In this document: piece by piece, positions 16,657-28,601 of the stretch | How the letters are laid out: the number at the start of each line of letters is the position of its first letter | Numbering within the stretch: the stretch's first letter is position 1 | Origin: Patescibacteria group bacterium | GTDB taxonomy: Bacteria; Patescibacteriota; Patescibacteriia; UBA1558; GWA2-36-10 | DNA: 64,000 nucleotides | NCBI GenBank assembly: GCA_041662585.1 | Contig: JBAZSG010000005.1 | Span: forward strand, 4,181-68,180 | Direction of reading: 5' to 3' | Made by a program: the position numbers and the translations under genes | The notes under the pieces: generated by a model | What the model was told of the DNA's origin: nothing | Database searches by the model: none | What the model saw: only the letters and a program-made list of their open reading frames with translations

Positions 16657-19527
16657 ATGAAAAAAATAAATATTTTGGTTTTTAATATATTATTGCTATT
16701 TCTAGCCGTAATACTAATTAAAACGGTTCAAGCCGAACCAATTGGCTATGTTCATTCAGCCTTGATGTTTAATAGTGTTGCCAATAAAACAGTTGATGAA
16801 GGCAAACCACTTATTTTTACTATATCAGCTACAGCTGGGGCTAGCGAAGATATATATTTATCTTATTCGGCTACCAATCTACCAACTGGAGCTAATTTTT
16901 CTGACTCCACATTTTCTTGGATTCCAGGATATGATCAGGCTGGTACTTATAATGTCAATTTCTCAGTCAACGATGGAGTTGAAACCAAACAAAAAGTGCT
17001 TACTATAACGGTAAACAATGTAGATAGATCCAATCCTTGTGCTGGCAAAACAAATTGTATTGAAGTTGATAGTTGTAGAATCTTAGATCAAACTGGAGCC
17101 TACTATGTTTTAACACAGGATGTTAGTGCGGATAATAGCTGTTTTTATATAGACGCTGATAATATCGTTTTGGATCTCAATGGCTATACCATCACTTATG
17201 CCAATAACGGCAGTAATGTTGATTGTTATTATGAACCAGATGGTTGGGTATATGGAGCCAACGCTTGTCATTATGGTGTGTTTGTCAGTGATTATCCAAG
17301 TGAAAATCCTGATAGTCTTTCCAGTGATTGGAACAAGCACAGTGATAATACCGAGATTAAAAACGGTACAATCAGACAAGGTAATAGTAATACTCGATGG
17401 GGAGACGCTATTCATATCTATGGTAATCATAATAGCTATCATGACCTTAATATAGAAGTCAAAGGACCTGATAGTCGAGCTATATGGTCAAGAATGGCTC
17501 AAAACAATAATCAAGATGTGGATGTAGATGTATACAATAATATTGTTTATATGAACCTCATAGATATTACCAATAGATATACTGTACCAAGTGTTTTTTG
17601 GATTGGTAATGGTTCTAGGATTTATAACAATCATATTACCGGTAGAGGACAAGCTGGCATTAAAGTGGGAGATAATAGTCAGGTTCATGATAATTATATA
17701 AGTATGTGGGGTATTGCTCCCAATGCTTATGCTATTATTATGGGGTCATATTCAGAAATATATAATAATTATGTCAATCAATTAAATGGCCGAGCTACTG
17801 GTATGGGTTCTGATAATAATACAGAAGGGGGTCATCATATACAATTTTATAACAATCACTTTGAAGGACGAGAAGGTTGTGATGCCAATGCCACTGATAT
17901 AACTCACGTATTTAGAGTAAGATATGGTTCTCATGACAATGAGATACATGACAATGACATCATAGCTTATGGAGCTAAAGATTGTTATAAAAACGCAATT
18001 GCTTTGAGGGTTTCAGAAGATCCTGTATATTATGGAGGGAAAAATCATATTTATAATAATACTATTGCCGCTTTTACTAATTCAGACAATGACTCATATG
18101 TTGTGGCTTTTATGTTGGAAGGTGATGATGACAATAGAGAATATCCAAACGACTCAATTCATGATAATCGGATAATCAGTAATTCACAAAACATGGTATA
18201 TGGCGGTTCCAATGGTGGTCTTAGTGGCACTGTTTTGACATCAAATACATTTGTTAAGGCTGACAATACTGCTGATTATACCAATAGTGGTGCTTATTAT
18301 ACTTTGAATGTGGGTTTTTATGGTTATCCATCATATGATCAGGTTTTGTTAGATTCAAAATTTGAAAATGGAGCGTCTTATAGTCAAGTTATTTTTAATG
18401 GTTCGGATCCAGAGATGGTAGTCAAATGGTATTTAGATATTAAAGCATTGGGTGCCAATGCTTTGGCACTTCCAGGAGCAAATATTACTATTAAAGATGT
18501 ATTTGGTAATACTGTGAGTCAAGGTGGAGTGACAGATTCAAGTGGGCATTTTAAAAAAGATTTAACAGAATTTGTACAGGTATCTGGTACCAATAAAACC
18601 TATTATTCCCCATATACTGTTATTGTGAGTTATGCTGGAGAAACCAAAACAAGACAAGTTACTTTGAATGCGAGCAAAGAAGAATCTTTTTCTTTTGGAT
18701 CAGGAGTAATAGACAATCCACCAGCTGATAATAATCCACCAGCCGATGACTCATCAAATACTCCTTCATCTGGATCATCTACTACACCGACACCTGATAC
18801 AAATACTCCTTCATCTGGATCATCTACTACACCGACACCTGATACAAATACTCCTTCATCTGGAAATTCTACTACACCGACACCTGATACAAATACTCCT
18901 TCATCTGGAAATTCTACTACACCTATTTCCGAGACAAACAATAATAGTAACATAGGCAATGTTGCCATTGATACTCAGCTTACTAATAGATTAAAAGGTA
19001 GAATTCTTTTGCAAGTAGAATCGCTAGGAGAGGCTTGGTATGTCAAACCAAGTGATGGTCAGAGAGTTTATATGAAAGACGGTGATGCTGCTTACCAGAT
19101 AATGAGATTTTTAAGTTTGGGTATTACCAATGCCAACTTAAACAAAATACCAATTGGTATAGAAGATAGATTTGAAGAGTTTGATGCTGATGGTGATGGC
19201 TTATCAGATAAAATAGAAGAAGCGATTGGTTCAAATTTATTTAATAAAGATTCAGATGGTGACGGTTTTGATGACAAGTCTGAAGTGTTGAATAATTTTT
19301 CTCCAATTTCAAGCTCACGAGTAGCTTTATTAAGAGATAATTCTTTAATCAATAGATTAAAAGGTCAAATTCTTTTGCAAGTAGAATCCAGAGGAGAGGC
19401 TTGGTATGTAAATCCAGTTGACGGTAAAAGATATTATATGAAAGACGGTGACGCTGCTTACCAGATAATGAGATTTTTAAGTTTGGGTATTACCAATGCT
19501 GATTTGGCCAAAATTGCTCAAGATTAA
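16657..19527 (+). CDS. Large secreted right-handed beta-helix (pectate-lyase-fold-like) protein
   Basis: Signal peptide, then N/G/I-rich parallel beta-helix repeats (NNxIxxN). A Thr/Pro-rich linker follows. Two copies of a ~55-aa C-terminal module (LKG(R/Q)ILLQVES(L/R)GEAWYV.P.DG.R.YMKDGDAAYQIMRFLSLGITNA.L.KI) flank a D.DGDG...D.DGDG calcium-binding-like motif. 956 aa. Confidence 0.65.
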   Translation: MKKINILVFNILLLFLAVILIKTVQAEPIGYVHSALMFNSVANKTVDEGKPLIFTISATAGASEDIYLSYSATNLPTGANFSDSTFSWIPGYDQAGTYNVNFSVNDGVETKQKVLTITVNNVDRSNPCAGKTNCIEVDSCRILDQTGAYYVLTQDVSADNSCFYIDADNIVLDLNGYTITYANNGSNVDCYYEPDGWVYGANACHYGVFVSDYPSENPDSLSSDWNKHSDNTEIKNGTIRQGNSNTRWGDAIHIYGNHNSYHDLNIEVKGPDSRAIWSRMAQNNNQDVDVDVYNNIVYMNLIDITNRYTVPSVFWIGNGSRIYNNHITGRGQAGIKVGDNSQVHDNYISMWGIAPNAYAIIMGSYSEIYNNYVNQLNGRATGMGSDNNTEGGHHIQFYNNHFEGREGCDANATDITHVFRVRYGSHDNEIHDNDIIAYGAKDCYKNAIALRVSEDPVYYGGKNHIYNNTIAAFTNSDNDSYVVAFMLEGDDDNREYPNDSIHDNRIISNSQNMVYGGSNGGLSGTVLTSNTFVKADNTADYTNSGAYYTLNVGFYGYPSYDQVLLDSKFENGASYSQVIFNGSDPEMVVKWYLDIKALGANALALPGANITIKDVFGNTVSQGGVTDSSGHFKKDLTEFVQVSGTNKTYYSPYTVIVSYAGETKTRQVTLNASKEESFSFGSGVIDNPPADNNPPADDSSNTPSSGSSTTPTPDTNTPSSGSSTTPTPDTNTPSSGNSTTPTPDTNTPSSGNSTTPISETNNNSNIGNVAIDTQLTNRLKGRILLQVESLGEAWYVKPSDGQRVYMKDGDAAYQIMRFLSLGITNANLNKIPIGIEDRFEEFDADGDGLSDKIEEAIGSNLFNKDSDGDGFDDKSEVLNNFSPISSSRVALLRDNSLINRLKGQILLQVESRGEAWYVNPVDGKRYYMKDGDAAYQIMRFLSLGITNADLAKIAQD
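18757..18925 (+). repeat. Tandem 45-nt coding repeat (~4 copies) encoding NTPSSG(S/N)STTPTPDT
   Basis: Near-identical 45-mers beginning aatactccttcatctgga. This is a coding repeat, not a CRISPR array. Confidence 0.85.
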
Positions 19528-19539
19528 ATATTATTGATA

Positions 19540-19595
19540 TCATATAGCTAATAATAAGACTATTATTAATAGTCTTATTATTTTAATTCTTTTTT
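19540..19595 (+). terminator. AT-rich hairpin terminator after the 956-aa gene
   Basis: AATAAGACTAT-tattaa-TAGTCTTATT followed by a T-rich run. Confidence 0.4.
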
Positions 19596-19624
19596 AGAGT
19601 TATATATTGTGTTATAATGTGTAT

Positions 19625-20893
19625 ATGAATATAAATTGGAAAAAAAATGGCCCATATTTGATTATTTTAGCGGCTATATTATGGGCTTTGGATGGAGTAC
19701 TGCGTAGGTCTCTTTTTTCTTTACCACCAATAATCATAGTTTTTTATGAGCATTTAATTGGTTTAATTATTATATCGCCATGGTTGTTCAAAAATATAAA
19801 GAACTTAAGTTTTAGCAAAAAAGAATGGGGGGCTTTATTTTTGGTTAGTTTGTTAAGTGGAGTATTAGGAACTCTTTGGTTTACTACAGCGCTGGTTAAA
19901 GTAAATTTTATTTCTTTTTCAGTTGTGTTTTTATTGCAAAAATTACAGCCACTCTTTGCCATGATTTTTGCTATTATTTTTCTCAAAGAAAAAATAAATA
20001 AGCAGTATATTGCTTGGGCTATTTTGGCTTTGGGCGCGGCTTACTTTGTGACTTTCAAAAATGGTTTAGTGAGTTTTGCTACAGGAGATAAGACTTTGAT
20101 AGCTGCTTTATTTGCTTTGGGAGCGGCTTTTGCTTGGGGTTCATCCACTGCTTTTTCTCGTTTTGCATTACTTAGAAAATCCAATACAATTGTCACTGGT
20201 ATGAGATTTTTTATTACTTCCATACTAGCTTTAATAGCTGTATTTATTTTTGGACAAAGCTCAAGTTTGGGAGCTCCTACCGGAGATCAGTGGCTTCGTT
20301 TTTTGGTCATTGCTTTCAGTACTGGTTTGGTAGCTTTGTGGATTTATTATCGTGGCCTTAAAAATACTCAAGTCAAAGTGGCTACTATTTTAGAATTGAC
20401 CTTTCCATTTTTAGCAGTTTTTATTGATATTGTTTTGTATAAAAATGTATTAGCTCCTAGCCAATATATAGCTGCTTTAGTTTTACTTTTTGCTATGTAT
20501 CGTGTATCTAGATTAAATACTGCTTTTGATAAACTATATACTACCAATATAATTGGAGGAGCTGGTCGAGGGCAGAGGATTGGTTTCCCGACTCTCAATT
20601 TTATTATTCCAGATAATTTTGAACATGCTTATGGTATTTATTGTGGTTTTGTTATTATAGGTGACCATAAACATAAAACAGCTTTTCACTACGGACCAAT
20701 TCCAACTTTTAAAGATAAAAGAAAATCTTTGGAAGCTTATATTATTTCTGGGGAATATTTAAAAGATATCCCAGATAAAATTTCTTTTCGTTTTGTAGCC
20801 AAGCTTCGTGATATAGAAAATTTTTCAGTCAAAGATAAATTAGTAGAAAATATTAAGCAAGATATAATTCAAGCAAAAGAAATATTAAAATAA
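19625..20893 (+). CDS. Fusion of a DMT/EamA-type 10-TM transporter with a C-terminal riboflavin kinase (flavokinase) domain
   Basis: The N-terminal ~300 aa are a two-repeat EamA-like membrane domain. The C-terminus reads GGAGRGQRIGFPTLNF...GIY...GPIPTF...LEAYII...FVAKLRDIENFSVKDKLVENIKQDI, matching the flavokinase domain of RibF. A TGtTATAAT box lies at 19610-19618. Confidence 0.75.
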   Translation: MNINWKKNGPYLIILAAILWALDGVLRRSLFSLPPIIIVFYEHLIGLIIISPWLFKNIKNLSFSKKEWGALFLVSLLSGVLGTLWFTTALVKVNFISFSVVFLLQKLQPLFAMIFAIIFLKEKINKQYIAWAILALGAAYFVTFKNGLVSFATGDKTLIAALFALGAAFAWGSSTAFSRFALLRKSNTIVTGMRFFITSILALIAVFIFGQSSSLGAPTGDQWLRFLVIAFSTGLVALWIYYRGLKNTQVKVATILELTFPFLAVFIDIVLYKNVLAPSQYIAALVLLFAMYRVSRLNTAFDKLYTTNIIGGAGRGQRIGFPTLNFIIPDNFEHAYGIYCGFVIIGDHKHKTAFHYGPIPTFKDKRKSLEAYIISGEYLKDIPDKISFRFVAKLRDIENFSVKDKLVENIKQDIIQAKEILK

Positions 20894-20900
20894 AATAATT

Positions 20901-21293
20901 ATGCTTTCTACAAAACAAAAAAGACAATTGCTATTTTTATTATTGGCTGCTTTGTGGGGTTATCTTATTTTTTATTTATCCAATACTCCTGATTTAGCTA
21001 CTGACTTACCACATCAATATGATTTTATTTTACGTAAATTGGCTCATGTTTTTGTTTTTTTAATTTTGACCTATCTGGTAGCCTCTAGTTTAGATAGTCA
21101 GCAAAGACATTATTTACTTTTTGTGATTATTGCCGCTATTGTTTATGCTTTTACTGATGAGCTTCACCAGACATTTGTACATGGCAGAGTGGGTAGTGGA
21201 CGTGATATATTGGTAGATTCTATTGGGGTTTATTTTGGCATATGGTTATATAAAGTTTATCCACCCACTAAATTATTTAAATATCTAAAATAA
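20901..21293 (+). CDS. VanZ-like membrane protein
   Basis: LRKLAHVFVFLILTYL...DELHQTFVHGRVGSGRDILVDSIG. 130 aa. Confidence 0.6.
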   Translation: MLSTKQKRQLLFLLLAALWGYLIFYLSNTPDLATDLPHQYDFILRKLAHVFVFLILTYLVASSLDSQQRHYLLFVIIAAIVYAFTDELHQTFVHGRVGSGRDILVDSIGVYFGIWLYKVYPPTKLFKYLK

Positions 21294-21386: not shown

Positions 21387-21734
21387 TTATTTTTTCATTT
21401 CGGCAACAATTTTTGCAAAAGCCTTTGGATCAGTTTCAGCAATTTGTGATAGCACTTTTCGATCTAATTCACATTTTTTAAGCGTCATGGCGTGAATAAA
21501 AGAAGAATATTTCCAGTCTAGTTGATGAAGAGCAGCATTGAGTTTGGTTTGCCACAATCTGCGGTTTACTCCTTTTTTGTCGCGTCTATCACGCATAGCA
21601 TGTGTACCGGCGTGTAGTATAGCTTCTTTAGCTTGTTTTATATTGTTTTTACGACCCCATCTGTATCCTTTGGTTTTAGCAAGGATATTTTTTCTTCTTT
21701 TGACATGGGTAGTGCCTCTTTTTACTCTTGGCAT
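21387..21734 (-). CDS. rplT: 50S ribosomal protein L20
   Basis: MPRVKRGTTHVKRRKNILAKTKGYRWGRKN. 115 aa. Confidence 0.9.
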   Translation of the reverse strand: MPRVKRGTTHVKRRKNILAKTKGYRWGRKNNIKQAKEAILHAGTHAMRDRRDKKGVNRRLWQTKLNAALHQLDWKYSSFIHAMTLKKCELDRKVLSQIAETDPKAFAKIVAEMKK

Positions 21735-21760
21735 AATGTTATTGTAGGTTCTTTAGAAAT

Positions 21761-21955
21761 TTATAAATAAGGTAATAGTGTTTTAATTGTTTTGACATTG
21801 ACAGATGATATTTCTTTATCACGTTTTTTGTTTTTAGTAACCTTTGAAGATTCTCTAGAATTAAAATGATCTTGTCCACCTCTACGGATAAGCACTTTTT
21901 TCTTGGCAGTTATTTTTACTCTCTTTTTTACTAATTTTTTTGTCTTCAATTTCAT
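21761..21955 (-). CDS. rpmI: 50S ribosomal protein L35
   Basis: MKLKTKKLVKKRVKITAKKKVLIRRGG. 64 aa. Confidence 0.85.
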   Translation of the reverse strand: MKLKTKKLVKKRVKITAKKKVLIRRGGQDHFNSRESSKVTKNKKRDKEISSVNVKTIKTLLPYL

Positions 21956-21972
21956 AGTATTGTTAAATGGAA

Positions 21973-22476
21973 TTATTTTTTAGCGATTACTACACTTAGT
22001 ACAGCACCCATTTGTTGTATACCTTTATCATCAAATGTATACTCGCCTTCTAAGTCTTCTACAAATTGTTTGATTACTTCTTTGGCTTTGTCTTTAAAGG
22101 CATAAGCTTTTTCTCTACCTTTTAGTCTTAATTCTATCTTGACATTATGACCTTTGGCCAAAAATTTTTCTACTTGTTTTTGTTTTACCAACATATCATG
22201 TTGGCCGATTTTTAGTGACAATCTTACACCTTTGGTTTCAATTTGTTTTATTTTTTTTTCGCTTCTACTTTGTTGAAATTTAAATTTGCCATGATCAATA
22301 ATTTTGCATACGGGGGGATTGGCCAGAGGAGAGACCTCTACCAAATCCAAGCCTTTTTCAATTGCCAAAGCCAAGGCTTGTTGAGTTGGCATTACACCGA
22401 GTTGTTCATTTTCTTCTCCAATCACTCGGACTTCTGCGGCACGTATTTGCCTATTCATCCAATATTTTTTGGTCAT
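21973..22476 (-). CDS. infC: Translation initiation factor IF-3
   Basis: IRAAEVRVIGEENEQLGVMP N-domain and a C-domain. Standard infC-rpmI-rplT operon order. The true start is probably internal, and IF-3 often uses an unusual start codon. Confidence 0.85.
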   Translation of the reverse strand: MTKKYWMNRQIRAAEVRVIGEENEQLGVMPTQQALALAIEKGLDLVEVSPLANPPVCKIIDHGKFKFQQSRSEKKIKQIETKGVRLSLKIGQHDMLVKQKQVEKFLAKGHNVKIELRLKGREKAYAFKDKAKEVIKQFVEDLEGEYTFDDKGIQQMGAVLSVVIAKK

Positions 22477-22531: not shown

Positions 22532-22918
22532 TGGTGGAGATGAGGGGTATTACACCCCTGTCTGACAAATGTCCTAATACACTTCTACAAGTTTAGTCAA
22601 TCTTGTTGTTTAAATTGTTGGCTCTAAAACTGACAAAAAACCAACAACCGAGTTAGATTGGGGGATTCAAAATATTTGTACTAACACCAAATATTTTTAG
22701 CCTGAAAAAATATGACGCTTCTAGTTAATCTCAGGCAGATTAGCCTAGAAACGGTCGAGGCACTTTTAAGCCAAGACTGGCGCAAAGCTAGGAACTTTGA
22801 AAAGCTCTTTTACTTTGGCAAAAGTGTTTTCTGCACTTAATTTTTTGTAATTTTGGCGAGATTACGAACTCAACTTGCTATATATCACTTCATCTGACAT
22901 CAAATAAAAAACATCCCC
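22532..22918 (-). ncRNA. ssrA: Putative tmRNA (ssrA), about 387 nt
   Basis: The minus strand begins GGGGATG... 4 nt after the smpB stop. It ends ...CAGGGGTGTAATACCCCTCATCTCCACCA. This forms a 7-bp acceptor stem with G3.U70 (Ala identity), discriminator A and CCA. The T-arm is GGGG/CCCC with a non-canonical loop TGTAATA. A candidate tag ORF ends ...GCGCCAGTCTTGGCTTAA (..APVLA*). Confidence 0.55.
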
Positions 22919-22922
22919 TAAA

Positions 22923-23375
22923 TTAAAAACTCTTTAGTTTTCGTAAAATGCTCCTATTGATATCTTTTCTTTTGATATCTTCTCGTTTGTCAAATTTCTT
23001 TTTTCCTTTAACTAAGGCTATTTTTACCTTAATTAACCTTCGCGTAGTATACACTGAAATAGGTACTATTGTCAAGCCTTTTTCATTGGTTTTATTCGAT
23101 AAATAAGCTATTTCTTTTTTAGTCAAAAGTAATCTTCTATCGGCATCTGTATGGTAATTTTGTTTACTTTGCAAAGAAGCCTTAGAATATATTGGAATAT
23201 GCATTTTTTTGATGTATGCTTGGCCATTTTTGAGAGAAACAAAAGCTCCTTTGAGACTAATATGCCCAGTTTTAATGGATTTTACTTCAGCTCCATTCAA
23301 AGCTAAACCAGCTTCAAACTCTTCTAAAATTTTGAAGTTATGACCGATTTGTTTGTTATGGGCAACTGTAGGCAT
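22923..23375 (-). CDS. smpB: SsrA-binding protein SmpB
   Basis: GLALNGAEVKSIKTGHISLKGAFVSL. The upstream in-frame extension to 23426 is probably not translated. Confidence 0.85.
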   Translation of the reverse strand: MPTVAHNKQIGHNFKILEEFEAGLALNGAEVKSIKTGHISLKGAFVSLKNGQAYIKKMHIPIYSKASLQSKQNYHTDADRRLLLTKKEIAYLSNKTNEKGLTIVPISVYTTRRLIKVKIALVKGKKKFDKREDIKRKDINRSILRKLKSF

Positions 23376-23643
23376 ATATTTAGTATTTTGTGCGTTAACT
23401 ATAAGATATTTTAGCTTATTTGACAAGAATAAGCATTTAGGTTTAAAAATGCTATTTTTTGTTTATTTTAAAATTCGCTATACTATATATATGGAAAGTA
23501 GACAAAGGAATATATTGATATCACTAGGTATCATTGTTGTAGTTGTTTTTATATTTACCTTGATAGTTAGATACGGCATGCATATGTTTTTTGATGATTT
23601 TGATTATTTTAAAGCTTTTTAAATATTATTAATAATAAAAAAT

Positions 23644-24901: not shown

Positions 24902-25402
24902 ATGAATGGCAAGACAAAAGCAAGAGAAGATTTTTTATCTTGGGATGATACTTTTATGCTTATGGCTGATCTTATAGCCAAAAGGTCAAAGGACCCCTCT
25001 ACACAAACTGGTTCAGTTATAGTTGATCAAAATAATGTTGTTCTTGGGTTGGGGTATAATGGTTTTCCTCGTGGCACAAAAGAAGGTGATTTTCCTTGGG
25101 ATAGAGAGGGTGGTTATGAAAAAGACGAATTTTTAAAAACCAAATATCCTTATGTAGTGCACGCTGAAGTAAATGCCATATTTAATTCTAATAACAAAAT
25201 TGAAGGAGCTAAAATGTATTGTCATCTTTTTCCTTGTAATGAGTGTGCTAAAGCCATAATTCAAAATGGTGTTAAAGAATTAATATATCAAGAAGATAAA
25301 TATAATGACGTTGATATTTTTCAAGCATCTCGAAAACTTTTTGATGCAGCCGGAATAAAAGTTCGTCAATATATACCAACTAAAAAATTAGAAATAAAGT
25401 AA
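24902..25402 (+). CDS. dCMP deaminase (CMP/dCMP deaminase zinc-binding family)
   Basis: HAEVNAI ... PCNECAKAI zinc ligands. 166 aa. Confidence 0.8.
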   Translation: MNGKTKAREDFLSWDDTFMLMADLIAKRSKDPSTQTGSVIVDQNNVVLGLGYNGFPRGTKEGDFPWDREGGYEKDEFLKTKYPYVVHAEVNAIFNSNNKIEGAKMYCHLFPCNECAKAIIQNGVKELIYQEDKYNDVDIFQASRKLFDAAGIKVRQYIPTKKLEIK

Positions 25403-25944
25403 TGGCAAAGATAATTTTGGGATTTACAGGGCTTATAGCAAGTGGTAAAGGGACTGCTGCTGAATACTTAAAAGAAAAATATGGAGCAGATACTTTTCGT
25501 TTTTCTACAATGTTAAGAGATGTAATGGATCGTTTATATATACCCCAATCAAGAGAAAATTTTCAAATCATCTCACCTGTCTTAAGAAAAGCTTTTGGGC
25601 AGGACTTGATGGCTAAAGTAATGGCGGAAGATGTTAAAAATTCTAAAGCAGAGATAATAGTTGTAGAGGGAATGCGTCGACCAGCAGATATAGAATATTT
25701 AAAAGATGTTCCTGGTTTTAGAATGGTAGCTATAGATGTGGACATTAAAACACGTTATGAGAGACTTATAAAACGGAGTGAGAATACAGATGATATAACA
25801 AAAACTTTTGAACAGTTTAAAAAAGAGCATGAAGCAGAAACAGAAATTTATATTCCAGAATTAATGAAACAAGCAGATTTTACAATTGATAATAATGGGA
25901 CATTAGAAGAATTATACAAACAATTAGACAAATTATTAAAATGA
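25402..25944 (+). CDS. P-loop nucleoside/nucleotide kinase (dNMP/cytidylate-kinase-like)
   Basis: [18 protein letters not shown]-loop. 180 aa. Embedded in a dTTP-pathway gene cluster. The exact substrate cannot be assigned from sequence. Confidence 0.5.
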
Positions 25945-26837
25945 AACAATATTTAGATTTACTGCAAAAAATAATGGATGAGGGTGTAGATAAAGGTGAC
26001 CGCACTGGCGTGGGTACACGCAGTGTTTTTGGTGCTCAAGCTAGATTTGATTTGTCCGAAGGTTTCCCGCTACTGACCACCAAAAAAATGTTTTTAAAAG
26101 CCATTATTCATGAGCTGATTTGGTTTGTGAGAGGTGATACCAATATCAAATATTTAGTTGACAATGGTGTCAGGATTTGGAATGAATGGCCTTACCAAAA
26201 ATACTTAGAGGCTAATAATCTGGCTGATAAATACAAAAAATATACTCCCGAGTGGGAAGAGAAAATGGCCGAATTTGTGGAGAATGTTAAGAGTGATGCT
26301 GAGTTTGCTAGCAAGTGGGGAGATTTGGGACCAGTGTATGGCAAACAATGGCGAGATTTCGGAGGAGTAGATCAGTTGATGGATATAATAGAAAGAATAA
26401 AGAAAAATCCCAATGACAGACGCATGATAGTTTCAGCTTGGAATCCACCAGAGATTCCTCAGATGGCTTTGCCACCTTGTCATTTACTTTTTCAATTTTA
26501 TGTGGCTGACGGAAAATTGTCACTACAAATGTATCAGCGTAGTTGTGATACATTTCTAGGTGTACCATTTAATATTGCTTCTTATTCACTGCTACTTATG
26601 ATGGTTGCTCAAGTAACAGGACTTAAACCTGGAACATTTGTGCATGTCTATGGTGATTTACATATTTATACTAATCATTTTGATCAAGTTAAAGAACAAT
26701 TATCTAGGCAGCCCAAGCCACTACCAATTATGAAAATCAATCCAGCTGTCAAAAAGATTGAAGATTTTGTTTATGAAGATTTTACTTTAGAGGGTTACGA
26801 TCCTTATCCAACTATTAAAGCACCGATTGCTGTATAA
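25941..26837 (+). CDS. thyA: Thymidylate synthase ThyA (long form with an insertion)
   Basis: MKQYLDLL...DRTGVGT...PPCH..FQFYV...[10 protein letters not shown]. 298 aa. Confidence 0.9.
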
Positions 26838-26839
26838 TT

Positions 26840-27325
26840 ATGTCAAAACCAATTATCAGTTTAATAGCAGCCATTGCCAAAGATAGAGGCATAGGATACC
26901 AAAATAAATTACTGGTGCATTTGTCACCAGATTTACAGCATTTTAAATCTGTTACTTCTGGACATATGGTTATCATGGGTCAGAATACCTATGAATCAAT
27001 GGGTAAGGCATTGCCCAAGCGAGAAAATATAGTATTAACCCGTGATCCAAATTTTAAAGTTGGCGATGCTAAAGTAATGTATTCTATTGAAGAAGCGTTA
27101 GAGTATGCTAAAAACTCTAGTGAAGAAGAAATTTTTTTTATTGGTGGAGCATCTATTTATGCTCAGTCAATTAAATTTGCCGATAAACTGTATTTGACTT
27201 TGATTGATAAGATTTGGCCAGCTGATACTTTTTTTCCGGAGTATGAAGAATTTAAATTAGTATCAGAATCTGACATGCAAGATTATAATGGTATTAAATT
27301 TAAATATATAGAATTAACCAAATAA
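26840..27325 (+). CDS. folA: Dihydrofolate reductase
   Basis: ISLIAAIAKDRGIG...VIMGQNTYESMG...LTRD...IGGASIY. 161 aa. Confidence 0.85.
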   Translation: MSKPIISLIAAIAKDRGIGYQNKLLVHLSPDLQHFKSVTSGHMVIMGQNTYESMGKALPKRENIVLTRDPNFKVGDAKVMYSIEEALEYAKNSSEEEIFFIGGASIYAQSIKFADKLYLTLIDKIWPADTFFPEYEEFKLVSESDMQDYNGIKFKYIELTK

Positions 27326-27330
27326 ATATC

Positions 27331-27570
27331 ATGTGGGATTTAATATCACAGTGGTTTATTGCTATATTAGGAGTGTTGGCTATTGTCATGGTGGCTAAGA
27401 AAAATAAGTGGGGTTTTGTAATCGGTTTAATTTCTCAACCATTTTGGTTTATTACTTCTTTTTCAAATCACCAATGGGGAGTGTTTATTATGAGTTTTGC
27501 CGCCACGGCTAGTTGGATGTTGGGTGTTTATGAATGGTTTTATAAAAAAGAAAATGAAAATAAAAGCTAA
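27331..27570 (+). CDS. Small hypothetical membrane protein (Trp-rich)
   Basis: 79 aa with two hydrophobic segments. Confidence 0.3.
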   Translation: MWDLISQWFIAILGVLAIVMVAKKNKWGFVIGLISQPFWFITSFSNHQWGVFIMSFAATASWMLGVYEWFYKKENENKS

Positions 27571-27976
27571 AAAAATATATCCAGATGCAATATTGCCTCA
27601 AGCTATGCGAAAAGGTGATGCTGCTTTTGATATTTATTCATACAAAGATTATGCATTACAGCCTGGACAGAGTATTTTGGCTCAAACAGGCGTAGCGCTG
27701 GCCATACCATTTGGATATTGGGGGAACATTAGAGATAGGAGTGGTTTGGCCGCTAAACACAATATTCATACTATGGCCGGTGTGATAGATTCAAATTATA
27801 GGGGAGAAATAAAAATATCCTTAATTAATTTAGGACAGGAAATATATAATATAAAAAAGGGAGACAGAATTTGTCAAATGATAATAGAACGTCATGAGCA
27901 AGTAGAATTAGACGAAGTGGAAAAATTGGATGAGACTAATAGAGGCGAAGATGGTTTTGCCTCTAGTGGATATTAA
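27554..27976 (+). CDS. dut: dUTP diphosphatase
   Basis: dUTPase motifs AAFDIY, RSGLA, GVIDSNYRGE, and the C-terminal RGEDGFASSG. The start was placed at the ATG at 27554; the upstream extension overlaps the previous ORF. Confidence 0.85.
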   Translation: MKIKAKKIYPDAILPQAMRKGDAAFDIYSYKDYALQPGQSILAQTGVALAIPFGYWGNIRDRSGLAAKHNIHTMAGVIDSNYRGEIKISLINLGQEIYNIKKGDRICQMIIERHEQVELDEVEKLDETNRGEDGFASSGY

Positions 27977-27977
27977 T

Positions 27978-28601
27978 ATGGATAAAGGAAAATTTATAGT
28001 AATAGAAGGAGGAGATAAATCTGGTAAAAGTACCCAGATTGCTTTGTTAAAAGATTATTTAGAATCAAAAAATATTGATTTTGTTTTAACTAGAGAACCA
28101 GGTGGCAAAGGATCAGTGATAGCTGAAAAGATTAGAGCCATAATTTTGGACAAAAATCACAAAGAAATGGATTCACGAACAGAGCTATTATTATTTTTAG
28201 CTTCTCGGGCTCAACATGTAGCAGAAATAGTAAAACCGGCCTTGGAAGAAGGTAAGGTAGTAGTATGTGATCGTTTTGATTCTTCTACTTTTGCTTATCA
28301 AGGAGCAGCTCGCAAGCTTGATGTAGAAACAATAAAAGCCATAAATAATTGGGCTAAGTATGGATTAGAAGCGGATTTGGTTATTTATTTGGATATTTCT
28401 CCAGAAGAAGCCGAAAATAGACGTCGTGGTGATAAACATGATAGACTAGATAGAGAGACACAAGAATTTCATCAGGCTGTTAGACAAGGATATTTAGCTC
28501 AAGCCAAAAACAATAATAAGTGGTTTGTAATATCAGCTGTGGGAGAAATAAATGATATTGCTAGTAAGATTTCTGATAAAATAATGATTTTGCTTAAATA
28601 G
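27978..28601 (+). CDS. tmk: Thymidylate kinase
   Basis: FIVIEGGDKSGKSTQ P-loop and DRF motif (DRFDSS). The start was placed at the ATG at 27978. Confidence 0.85.
   Translation: MDKGKFIVIEGGDKSGKSTQIALLKDYLESKNIDFVLTREPGGKGSVIAEKIRAIILDKNHKEMDSRTELLLFLASRAQHVAEIVKPALEEGKVVVCDRFDSSTFAYQGAARKLDVETIKAINNWAKYGLEADLVIYLDISPEEAENRRRGDKHDRLDRETQEFHQAVRQGYLAQAKNNNKWFVISAVGEINDIASKISDKIMILLK

Follow-up and report, generated by a model that had tools for sequence, protein, structure and literature searches.

A predicted riboflavin permease joined to a flavokinase domain, and its split relatives across Patescibacteria

Patescibacteria, also called the candidate phyla radiation (CPR), hold a large share of bacterial diversity, have hardly been cultivated, and probably rely on other cells as a source of cofactors. 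Several components that could serve flavin acquisition are already known from other bacteria, including riboflavin importers of the drug/metabolite transporter (DMT) type, riboflavin kinase (RFK), flavin mononucleotide (FMN) riboswitches, and the principle of metabolic trapping. RibN, a riboflavin importer of alpha- and gamma-Proteobacteria, is said to have been described as an EamA-type DMT protein by Garcia Angulo et al. in 2013. In the lic operon of Streptococcus pneumoniae, choline taken up by the importer LicB is phosphorylated by LicA, a kinase encoded at the same locus. Here, we analyze a gene in a 64-kb stretch of DNA from an uncultivated Patescibacteria group bacterium with a tiny genome (contig JBAZSG010000005.1, positions 4,181 to 68,180, hereafter the window) in which an EamA permease with 10 transmembrane (TM) segments continues in frame into a flavokinase domain. 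Judging from this gene and its relatives, the fusion likely encodes a riboflavin uptake-and-trapping machine. What appears to be new is the covalent combination of transporter and kinase, together with the phylum-wide module to which it belongs.

The closest described systems each share part of this design. A 2015 survey found RibN in Proteobacteria only, where it is usually monocistronic; its alpha-proteobacterial members came to light because an FMN riboswitch lies upstream of them (PMC4418817). ImpX, a distant homolog of the eukaryotic RFT2 (SLC52), is an FMN-riboswitch-controlled and usually monocistronic permease of Fusobacteria, Firmicutes, and Proteobacteria that was found only in organisms with a riboflavin biosynthesis pathway; an upstream FMN riboswitch was the original criterion by which RibU, RibM, RibN, and ImpX were all recognized (PMC4418817). 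The protein analyzed here resembles RibN in being a predicted riboflavin importer of the secondary type, and some of its orthologs resemble both RibN and ImpX in that an FMN riboswitch lies upstream of the permease gene, in 12 of 80 loci that do not include the window copy. Unlike RibN, for which no kinase fusion or linkage has been reported, the family studied here is confined to Patescibacteria as far as record titles show, and a flavokinase is linked to the transporter in 85% of the loci examined; this separation is drawn by distribution and description only. No RibN-specific model was among the NCBIfam or Pfam matches of the protein. Also compared by description only, ImpX differs in having no reported kinase linkage and in its relation to RFT2, whereas the window protein strongly matches the Pfam EamA family.

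Other systems pair a transporter with a kinase. For the Pnu facilitators and their co-localized kinases (PnuX/RibM, PnuT with a thiamine kinase, and PnuC with NadR), metabolic trapping is the accepted model, a logic that was proposed in general and is experimentally supported for thiamine (PMC5749112). As in Pnu systems, the genes studied here are co-localized, and an unphosphorylated vitamin is predicted to enter the cell passively or at low energy cost and then to be phosphorylated in the cytoplasm. The two differ in transporter fold, which is DMT/EamA here and PF04973 in Pnu proteins, and in that the transporter and kinase of the Pnu systems covered by that paper are encoded by separate genes while here they often form one polypeptide. 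LicB and LicA likewise combine a DMT importer with a kinase acting on the imported substrate, as is predicted for our system, but the substrate is choline, the kinase family is unrelated, and transporter and kinase are not joined in one protein. In fold and in catalytic residues, the kinase half equals the C-terminal RFK module of RibF; unlike RibF, it lacks the N-terminal FMN adenylyltransferase module, and a permease stands in its N-terminal place. In open-access full text, we found no published account of such a fusion, of a riboflavin transporter from CPR, or of an FMN-riboswitch-controlled EamA gene in CPR.

The fusion gene is a single uninterrupted open reading frame (ORF) on the + strand, running from an ATG at 19625 to a TAA at 20891–20893 and encoding 422 amino acids (aa). 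The mechanical ORF begins earlier, with a TTG at 19607, and homolog alignments begin at the ATG. The product of this coding sequence (19625–20893, +, stop codon included) is 100% identical to P0001, an NCBI record annotated only as 'EamA family transporter [Patescibacteria group bacterium]'. A sequence-only reading of the window had proposed that the first ~300 residues form a two-repeat EamA permease with 10 TM segments and the last ~125 residues a flavokinase, and a domain search bore out both assignments, with each half clearing its curated threshold. EamA (PF00892) matched as two tandem repeats (E 1.1e-35; 123.3 bits, cut-off 28.2), and Flavokinase (PF01687) matched residues 307–421 over positions 9–124 of its 124-position profile (E 3.7e-20, 72.8 bits against 19.6). 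The kinase motifs that this reading had quoted are all present in the translation, namely GAGRGQRIGFPTLN at residues 313–326, GIY at 337–339, GPIPTF at 357–362, LEAYII at 369–374, and KLRDIENF at 393–400. Neither the FMN adenylyltransferase module (PF06574) nor the Pnu domain (PF04973) gave a Pfam match in the fusion protein.

An AlphaFold2 model built on 52 orthologs is confident (mean pLDDT 87.1, pTM 0.79) and shows helices across residues 9–296, which make up the 10 TM segments; after them come a beta-barrel and, at the C terminus, one more helix. The permease, which would hold the predicted riboflavin pathway, corresponds to residues 9–296 (19649–20512, +) by Pfam, AlphaFold2, and Foldseek, with TM1–5 at residues 9–30, 35–60, 65–92, 99–120, and 126–143 and TM6–10 at residues 155–182, 187–208, 220–246, 250–272, and 278–296. 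In the model, the kinase opens with a beta-strand at 304, close behind TM10, which extends to about residue 296, so that only a short linker of ~7 residues (297–303; 20513–20533, +) lies between them. The PF01687, profile, and Foldseek matches identify residues 304–422 (20534–20890, +) as a predicted monofunctional ATP-dependent riboflavin kinase domain of the RibF C-terminal/RFK type. The linker contains no extra inserted sequence and corresponds to the C-terminal tail of a stand-alone transporter meeting the N terminus of a stand-alone kinase; at loci where the two are split, the transporter match stops at query residues 295–297 and the kinase match mostly begins at ~301–310 (up to 321). No match containing both halves in one chain was present among the top Foldseek matches listed.

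By Foldseek, the permease has the fold of the DMT transporters LicB and YddG (TM-score 0.80–0.81 on target). The closest PDB sequence is the choline importer LicB (7b0k/7paf; E 2e-8, TM-score 0.81); aligned by structure, the two share ~21% identity. Polar and aromatic positions invariant across 52 fused orthologs include W20, D23, R27, R28, E42, Q105, K106, Q108, W171, R194, Y241, Y242, E257, and D268. Hydropathy and the AlphaFold2 helices agree on 10 TM segments, with both termini on the same side. Lysine and arginine residues average 16.3 in the predicted inside loops versus 4.0 outside over 120 homologs; because this excess sits in the inside loops of a protein with 10 TM segments, the kinase domain and both termini are predicted to be cytoplasmic.

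The breadth of the family raises the question of whether the permease carries some other metabolite, such as an amino acid, a nucleoside, or a drug-like compound, with the kinase merely anchored to the membrane or co-expressed. EamA/DMT proteins are very diverse, and the relatives with the closest solved structures transport choline (LicB), amino acids (YddG), or nucleotide sugars; the best NCBIfam match of the permease half is a carboxylate/amino-acid/amine transporter model, and some orthologs have no kinase nearby. That best match is itself below cut-off, however, and the substrate-specific NCBIfam models all fall far short of theirs (TIGR00950, 59.9 bits versus 230; YedA, 24.7 versus 270), so the N-terminal half is not placed in a family with an established non-flavin substrate. 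We consider an unrelated substrate very unlikely given these scores and two observations developed below: flavokinase linkage persists through four gene arrangements, and FMN riboswitches precede 12 orthologous transporters, three of which have no kinase nearby.

The closest sequence matches of the C-terminal half in the PDB are human riboflavin kinase and the RFK module of the C. ammoniagenes FAD (flavin adenine dinucleotide) synthetase, hereafter CaFADS. A profile of the fused family gave E values of 1.7e-18 for CaFADS, 4.5e-19 for its isolated RFK module, and 1.5e-14 for human RFK, and Foldseek matched the CaFADS RFK module (TM-score 0.69, rmsd 2.3 Å) and human RFK (0.67). NCBIfam RibF models aligned through their C-terminal halves only, with 30–61 bits against cut-offs of 184–461. 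Profile alignment equates CaFADS T208, N210, E268, R292, and D310 with T323, N325, E370, R395, and D413 of the fusion. In CaFADS, no FMN is formed once T208, N210, or E268 is mutated, and the R292–D310 salt bridge spans the flavin pocket (PMC2573891). By this equivalence, T323 and N325 within the PT(phi)N motif (P322-T323-L324-N325; 20588–20599, +) would accommodate the ATP phosphates and the metal, E370 (20732–20734, +) would act as the proposed catalytic base touching the ribityl 5'-OH, and R395 (20807–20809, +) and D413 (20861–20863, +) would form the salt bridge that closes the flavin pocket.

All five residues are invariant across 52 fused orthologs, and T323, E370, R395, D413, and the Gly-rich flap are still invariant in fusions that are only 26–43% identical. 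The kinase half as a whole drifts much faster than the permease half (26–44% versus 52–69% identity); catalytic residues that stay fixed amid such drift are the pattern expected from purifying selection on catalysis. The faster evolution could also be read as a sign that the C-terminal domain is a non-enzymatic flavin or ATP sensor that gates the transporter, and when the ten most divergent fusions are aligned, the Asn of the PTxN motif does fall below 90% conservation. The residues that remain invariant are nevertheless exactly those for catalysis and substrate binding, which led us to reject a dead kinase. Moreover, the domain is free-standing (120–134 aa) in most genomes, and no other flavokinase was seen in the surrounding DNA read. 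We therefore regard a purely sensory role as highly improbable.

A fusion of this kind might instead be an artefact, either an assembly chimera or a frameshift that merged adjacent genes, and the transporter and kinase genes of many relatives do overlap by 1–26 nucleotides (nt) in different frames, where one indel error could mimic a fusion. However, NCBI, JGI, and ENA all have records of the identical protein, one of them on a 702-kb contig, and the fusion architecture is present in more than 70 protein clusters (at 90% identity) from independent assemblies, down to 47% identity. Among the 50%-identity representatives of 15 billion proteins, a library of 1.84 billion, it recurs down to 27–30% identity. 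Unrelated projects also contributed single-ORF fusions, in 20 of 80 species representatives, and the junction is kept in orthologs that are 81–84% identical (L012–L015). The 702-kb contig and the recurrence in independent assemblies together show that the fusion is not an assembly chimera, and the chance that it is an artefact of any kind is negligible.

The close family forms a compact group, in that 120 representatives reach E <= 1e-30 compared to 3,624 superfamily matches, and the only organism-labeled cluster among the most divergent fusions is from Patescibacteria. EamA-only relatives of ~300 aa interleave with fused ones in a neighbor-joining tree of the permease half, which implies at least five changes of state.

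To place the fusion among its relatives, we scanned one genome per species across 185,579 species representatives, found a relative in 287 species, and classified the best 80 of these loci, searching for the two halves separately. The 80 loci belong to Patescibacteria wherever the record title is informative. The kinase is linked to the transporter in 68 of the 80 genomes (85%), in four arrangements: fused in a single ORF (20 loci), as a separate ORF directly downstream (32), directly upstream in the same orientation (7), or no more than 2.5 kb away on the opposite strand, either divergent or convergent (9). The remaining 12 loci have no kinase within 2.5 kb, a few of them being cut by contig ends. 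Of the 28 loci in which the kinase is neither fused nor downstream, 16 have it upstream or on the other strand. That linkage survives four arrangements is strong evidence for a functional partnership.

The downstream kinase ORFs have their own start codon and are 120–134 aa long, starting at the first beta-strand; the start codon is ATG in all but one (M-K/L-F/Y-...-G-K-G-R-G). In 28 of 32 cases the kinase overlaps the transporter stop by 1–26 nt, often as ATGA. The overlap and the separate start codon indicate that these are genuine genes, probably translationally coupled to the transporter, and an indel of one or two bases would suffice to fuse such a pair.

No conserved flavin gene was found among the neighbors of four distant fused orthologs and of P0054, an unfused protein. 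A first impression that the neighborhood offered no support was overturned by the 80-locus scan, in which most proteins that had seemed unfused turned out to have an adjacent kinase ORF. Clustering of ORFs of at least 70 aa over the 80 loci revealed no recurrent third partner; the clusters it returned were housekeeping genes of particular lineages (MiaA, LepA, and FolD-like) or antisense artefacts. A pterin-4a-carbinolamine-dehydratase-like ORF clusters over 8 loci, and in one of these, L086, it directly follows the transporter. The reversed order, with the kinase preceding the transporter, is seen in L048, L058, L079, L081, L082, L085, and L086 (kinase at ~2480–2860 of the locus), and the kinases in this order are more divergent, at 26–33% identity to the window kinase domain.

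The gene also appears in several metagenome-assembled genomes (MAGs) from TPA co-assemblies titled 'uncultured Pseudomonadales bacterium' or 'uncultured Gammaproteobacteria bacterium', which carry a CPR-type copy at 48–67% identity (L019, L022, L025, L033, L035, L039, L047, L049, L051, L059, L063, L067, L078, and L079). At least one contig, L035/L007, has typical CPR-like gene content, and these titles look like placeholder or wrong taxonomy.

Independent evidence on the substrate comes from RNA elements. We scanned all 80 loci with Rfam at the gathering threshold (66.2 for RF00050) and detected a full-length FMN riboswitch, scoring 74.6–106.5 bits, upstream of the transporter in 12 loci (L023, L036, L040, L045, L046, L049, L055, L059, L061, L063, L076, and L078). 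The 3' end of the aptamer lies ~40–130 nt before the transporter ATG on the same strand. The kinase is downstream in four of these loci, on the opposite strand in five, and absent from the vicinity in three, and the transporters are 54–64% identical to the window protein over the best tblastn segment (59–64% for 11 of the 12). Behind the aptamer, at least five loci have a G+C-rich hairpin with a U-run that lies immediately ahead of the ATG, as at ~2456–2480 in L076. This combination of aptamer and terminator is an OFF architecture, and high FMN would thus shut the transporter off, as expected for an importer.

The direction of control speaks to a further alternative, in which the permease exports flavin or releases it bidirectionally, for instance as an extracellular redox shuttle, and the kinase competes for the substrate. 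Several EamA proteins do export, YddG included. Pnu facilitators, moreover, are bidirectional and can release vitamins (PMC5749112). Yet a gene that is turned off by its aptamer and terminator at high FMN behaves opposite to what an overflow exporter would need, and it makes little sense to fuse an exporter to an enzyme that consumes its substrate. Patescibacteria are also generally described as lacking cofactor biosynthesis and would have little to export. On balance, we judge a role in flavin release highly unlikely.

Riboflavin import coupled to FMN trapping, the function that the sequence-only reading had put forward for the fusion, is thus the prediction best supported by the relatives, through kinase linkage (68 of 80) and riboswitches (12 of 80). 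In the mechanism we propose, riboflavin would cross the membrane via the 10-TM DMT/EamA permease, and the flavokinase tethered at the cytoplasmic end of TM10 would phosphorylate the ribityl 5'-OH using ATP and Mg2+. The resulting FMN is charged and presumably not transported back, and it would accumulate in the cell by metabolic trapping. The fusion would then represent one state of a conserved Patescibacteria transporter-kinase module that in other lineages takes the form of an overlapping two-gene operon or of neighboring genes on either strand, with a subset probably repressed through an FMN riboswitch.

A more demanding version of this mechanism joins two claims: that transport and phosphorylation are obligatorily coupled in a group translocation resembling the phosphotransferase system (PTS) but built on a DMT scaffold, and that the module is the principal flavin entry route of Patescibacteria. 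Here the kinase would dock on the inward-open permease, take riboflavin directly from the transport pathway, and gate the cycle; FMN rather than riboflavin would be released into the cell, and FAD synthesis by a route other than RibF would then be needed. We consider this joint proposal unlikely.

No rib, FAD, or FMN adenylyltransferase genes are among the genes annotated across the window, which covers 64 of about 702 kb, and a tblastn search with the N-terminal half of E. coli RibF found no match there, nor in 90 CPR loci around related genes (667 kb). The C-terminal half of E. coli RibF gave 66 matches in the same 667 kb of CPR sequence. Riboflavin synthesis is reported only for Gracilibacteria in PMC9166423.

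Several observations weigh against riboflavin uptake and trapping as the function of the fusion. In the loci examined, no FMN adenylyltransferase is fused or linked to the module. The window copy has no FMN riboswitch upstream, as had been noted from the sequence, nor does any of the 20 fused loci, and none was found in five further contexts; the riboswitch evidence is therefore confined to non-fused orthologs. Among DMT proteins there are some exporters and antiporters. Ranking of the 80 loci used the full-length fused query, which may enrich for downstream kinases, and 12 of the 80 have no kinase within 2.5 kb. For the unfused P0054, none was found within 8 kb. These 12 loci and P0054 indicate that the transporter does not strictly depend on an adjacent kinase.

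Riboswitches occur in 0 of 20 fused genes and in 12 of 60 non-fused ones, and fusion and riboswitch control look mutually exclusive within the 80-locus sample.

If correct, the uptake-and-trapping prediction would give a substrate to a highly conserved CPR membrane protein that carries only a generic annotation, on three independent lines of genomic evidence: the fusion itself, linkage in four arrangements, and FMN riboswitches. The module would point to a route of flavin cofactor acquisition in Patescibacteria and would imply a requirement for exogenous riboflavin, which could be useful in the design of cultivation media. A transporter covalently joined to its putative trapping kinase, with related split and solo versions as built-in controls, would also make the model of facilitated diffusion plus metabolic trapping testable inside one protein family.

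A perfect 15-bp A/T-rich hairpin followed by a U-run (19550–19582, +; -15.2 kcal/mol, z = -3.4 versus shuffles) likely terminates the upstream gene for a 956-aa surface protein and marks the 5' boundary of the transporter unit. A terminator scan that requires G+C misses this hairpin, and terminators may consequently be under-called systematically in this low-G+C genome. The extended -10 element reported in the earlier reading is indeed present, as TGnTATAAT at 19610–19618 (+), 6 nt before the ATG; a two-hexamer promoter scan did not list it because it has no -35. There is no Shine-Dalgarno sequence between the -10 element and the ATG. The same TGnTATAAT-N6-ATG spacing is found in L013, an 84% identical ortholog (~2485–2503), and L015 is similar, with TATAAT, 4 nt, and ATG. 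The window mRNA is thus probably leaderless, which would leave no room for a riboswitch at this copy, and the gene appears to be constitutively expressed from the extended -10 promoter.

For the 956-aa secreted or surface protein (16657–19527, +), Pfam gave no significant match; a TSP3 repeat stayed below threshold. The protein has PTPDTNTPSSG(S/N)STT repeats in tandem at about 18.7–18.95 kb and a duplicated C-terminal module of ~60 aa (…NRLKG(R/Q)ILLQVES(L/R)GEAWYV…MRFLSLGITNA(N/D)L…). On the other side, a VanZ-family gene (20901–21293, +) begins 7 nt past the fusion stop and is probably co-transcribed with the fusion gene. VanZ was rejected as a conserved neighbor, as in L005 it lies ~6 kb away, beside rplT. 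Further downstream, the IF3-L35-L20 operon (21387–22476) and the tmRNA (22532–22918, -; 117 bits), which sits directly downstream of smpB on the same strand (22923–23426, -), make up a housekeeping neighborhood.

A deoxynucleotide operon follows, comprising genes for a dCMP deaminase (24902–25402), a P-loop kinase (25402–25944), ThyA (25941–26837), DHFR (26840–27325), a 79-aa ORF (27331–27570, +), a dUTPase/DCD (27497–27976), and a Tmk/dNK-like protein (27930–28601). The 79-aa ORF matches PnuC/NMN_transporter (PF04973) over the first ~70 positions only, at 30.3 bits against a cut-off of 27.3, and may encode a Pnu-like nucleoside 'half transporter' of about one-third size that is paired with a trapping kinase. 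Read in this way, it would be a second case of a transporter beside a kinase in the window.

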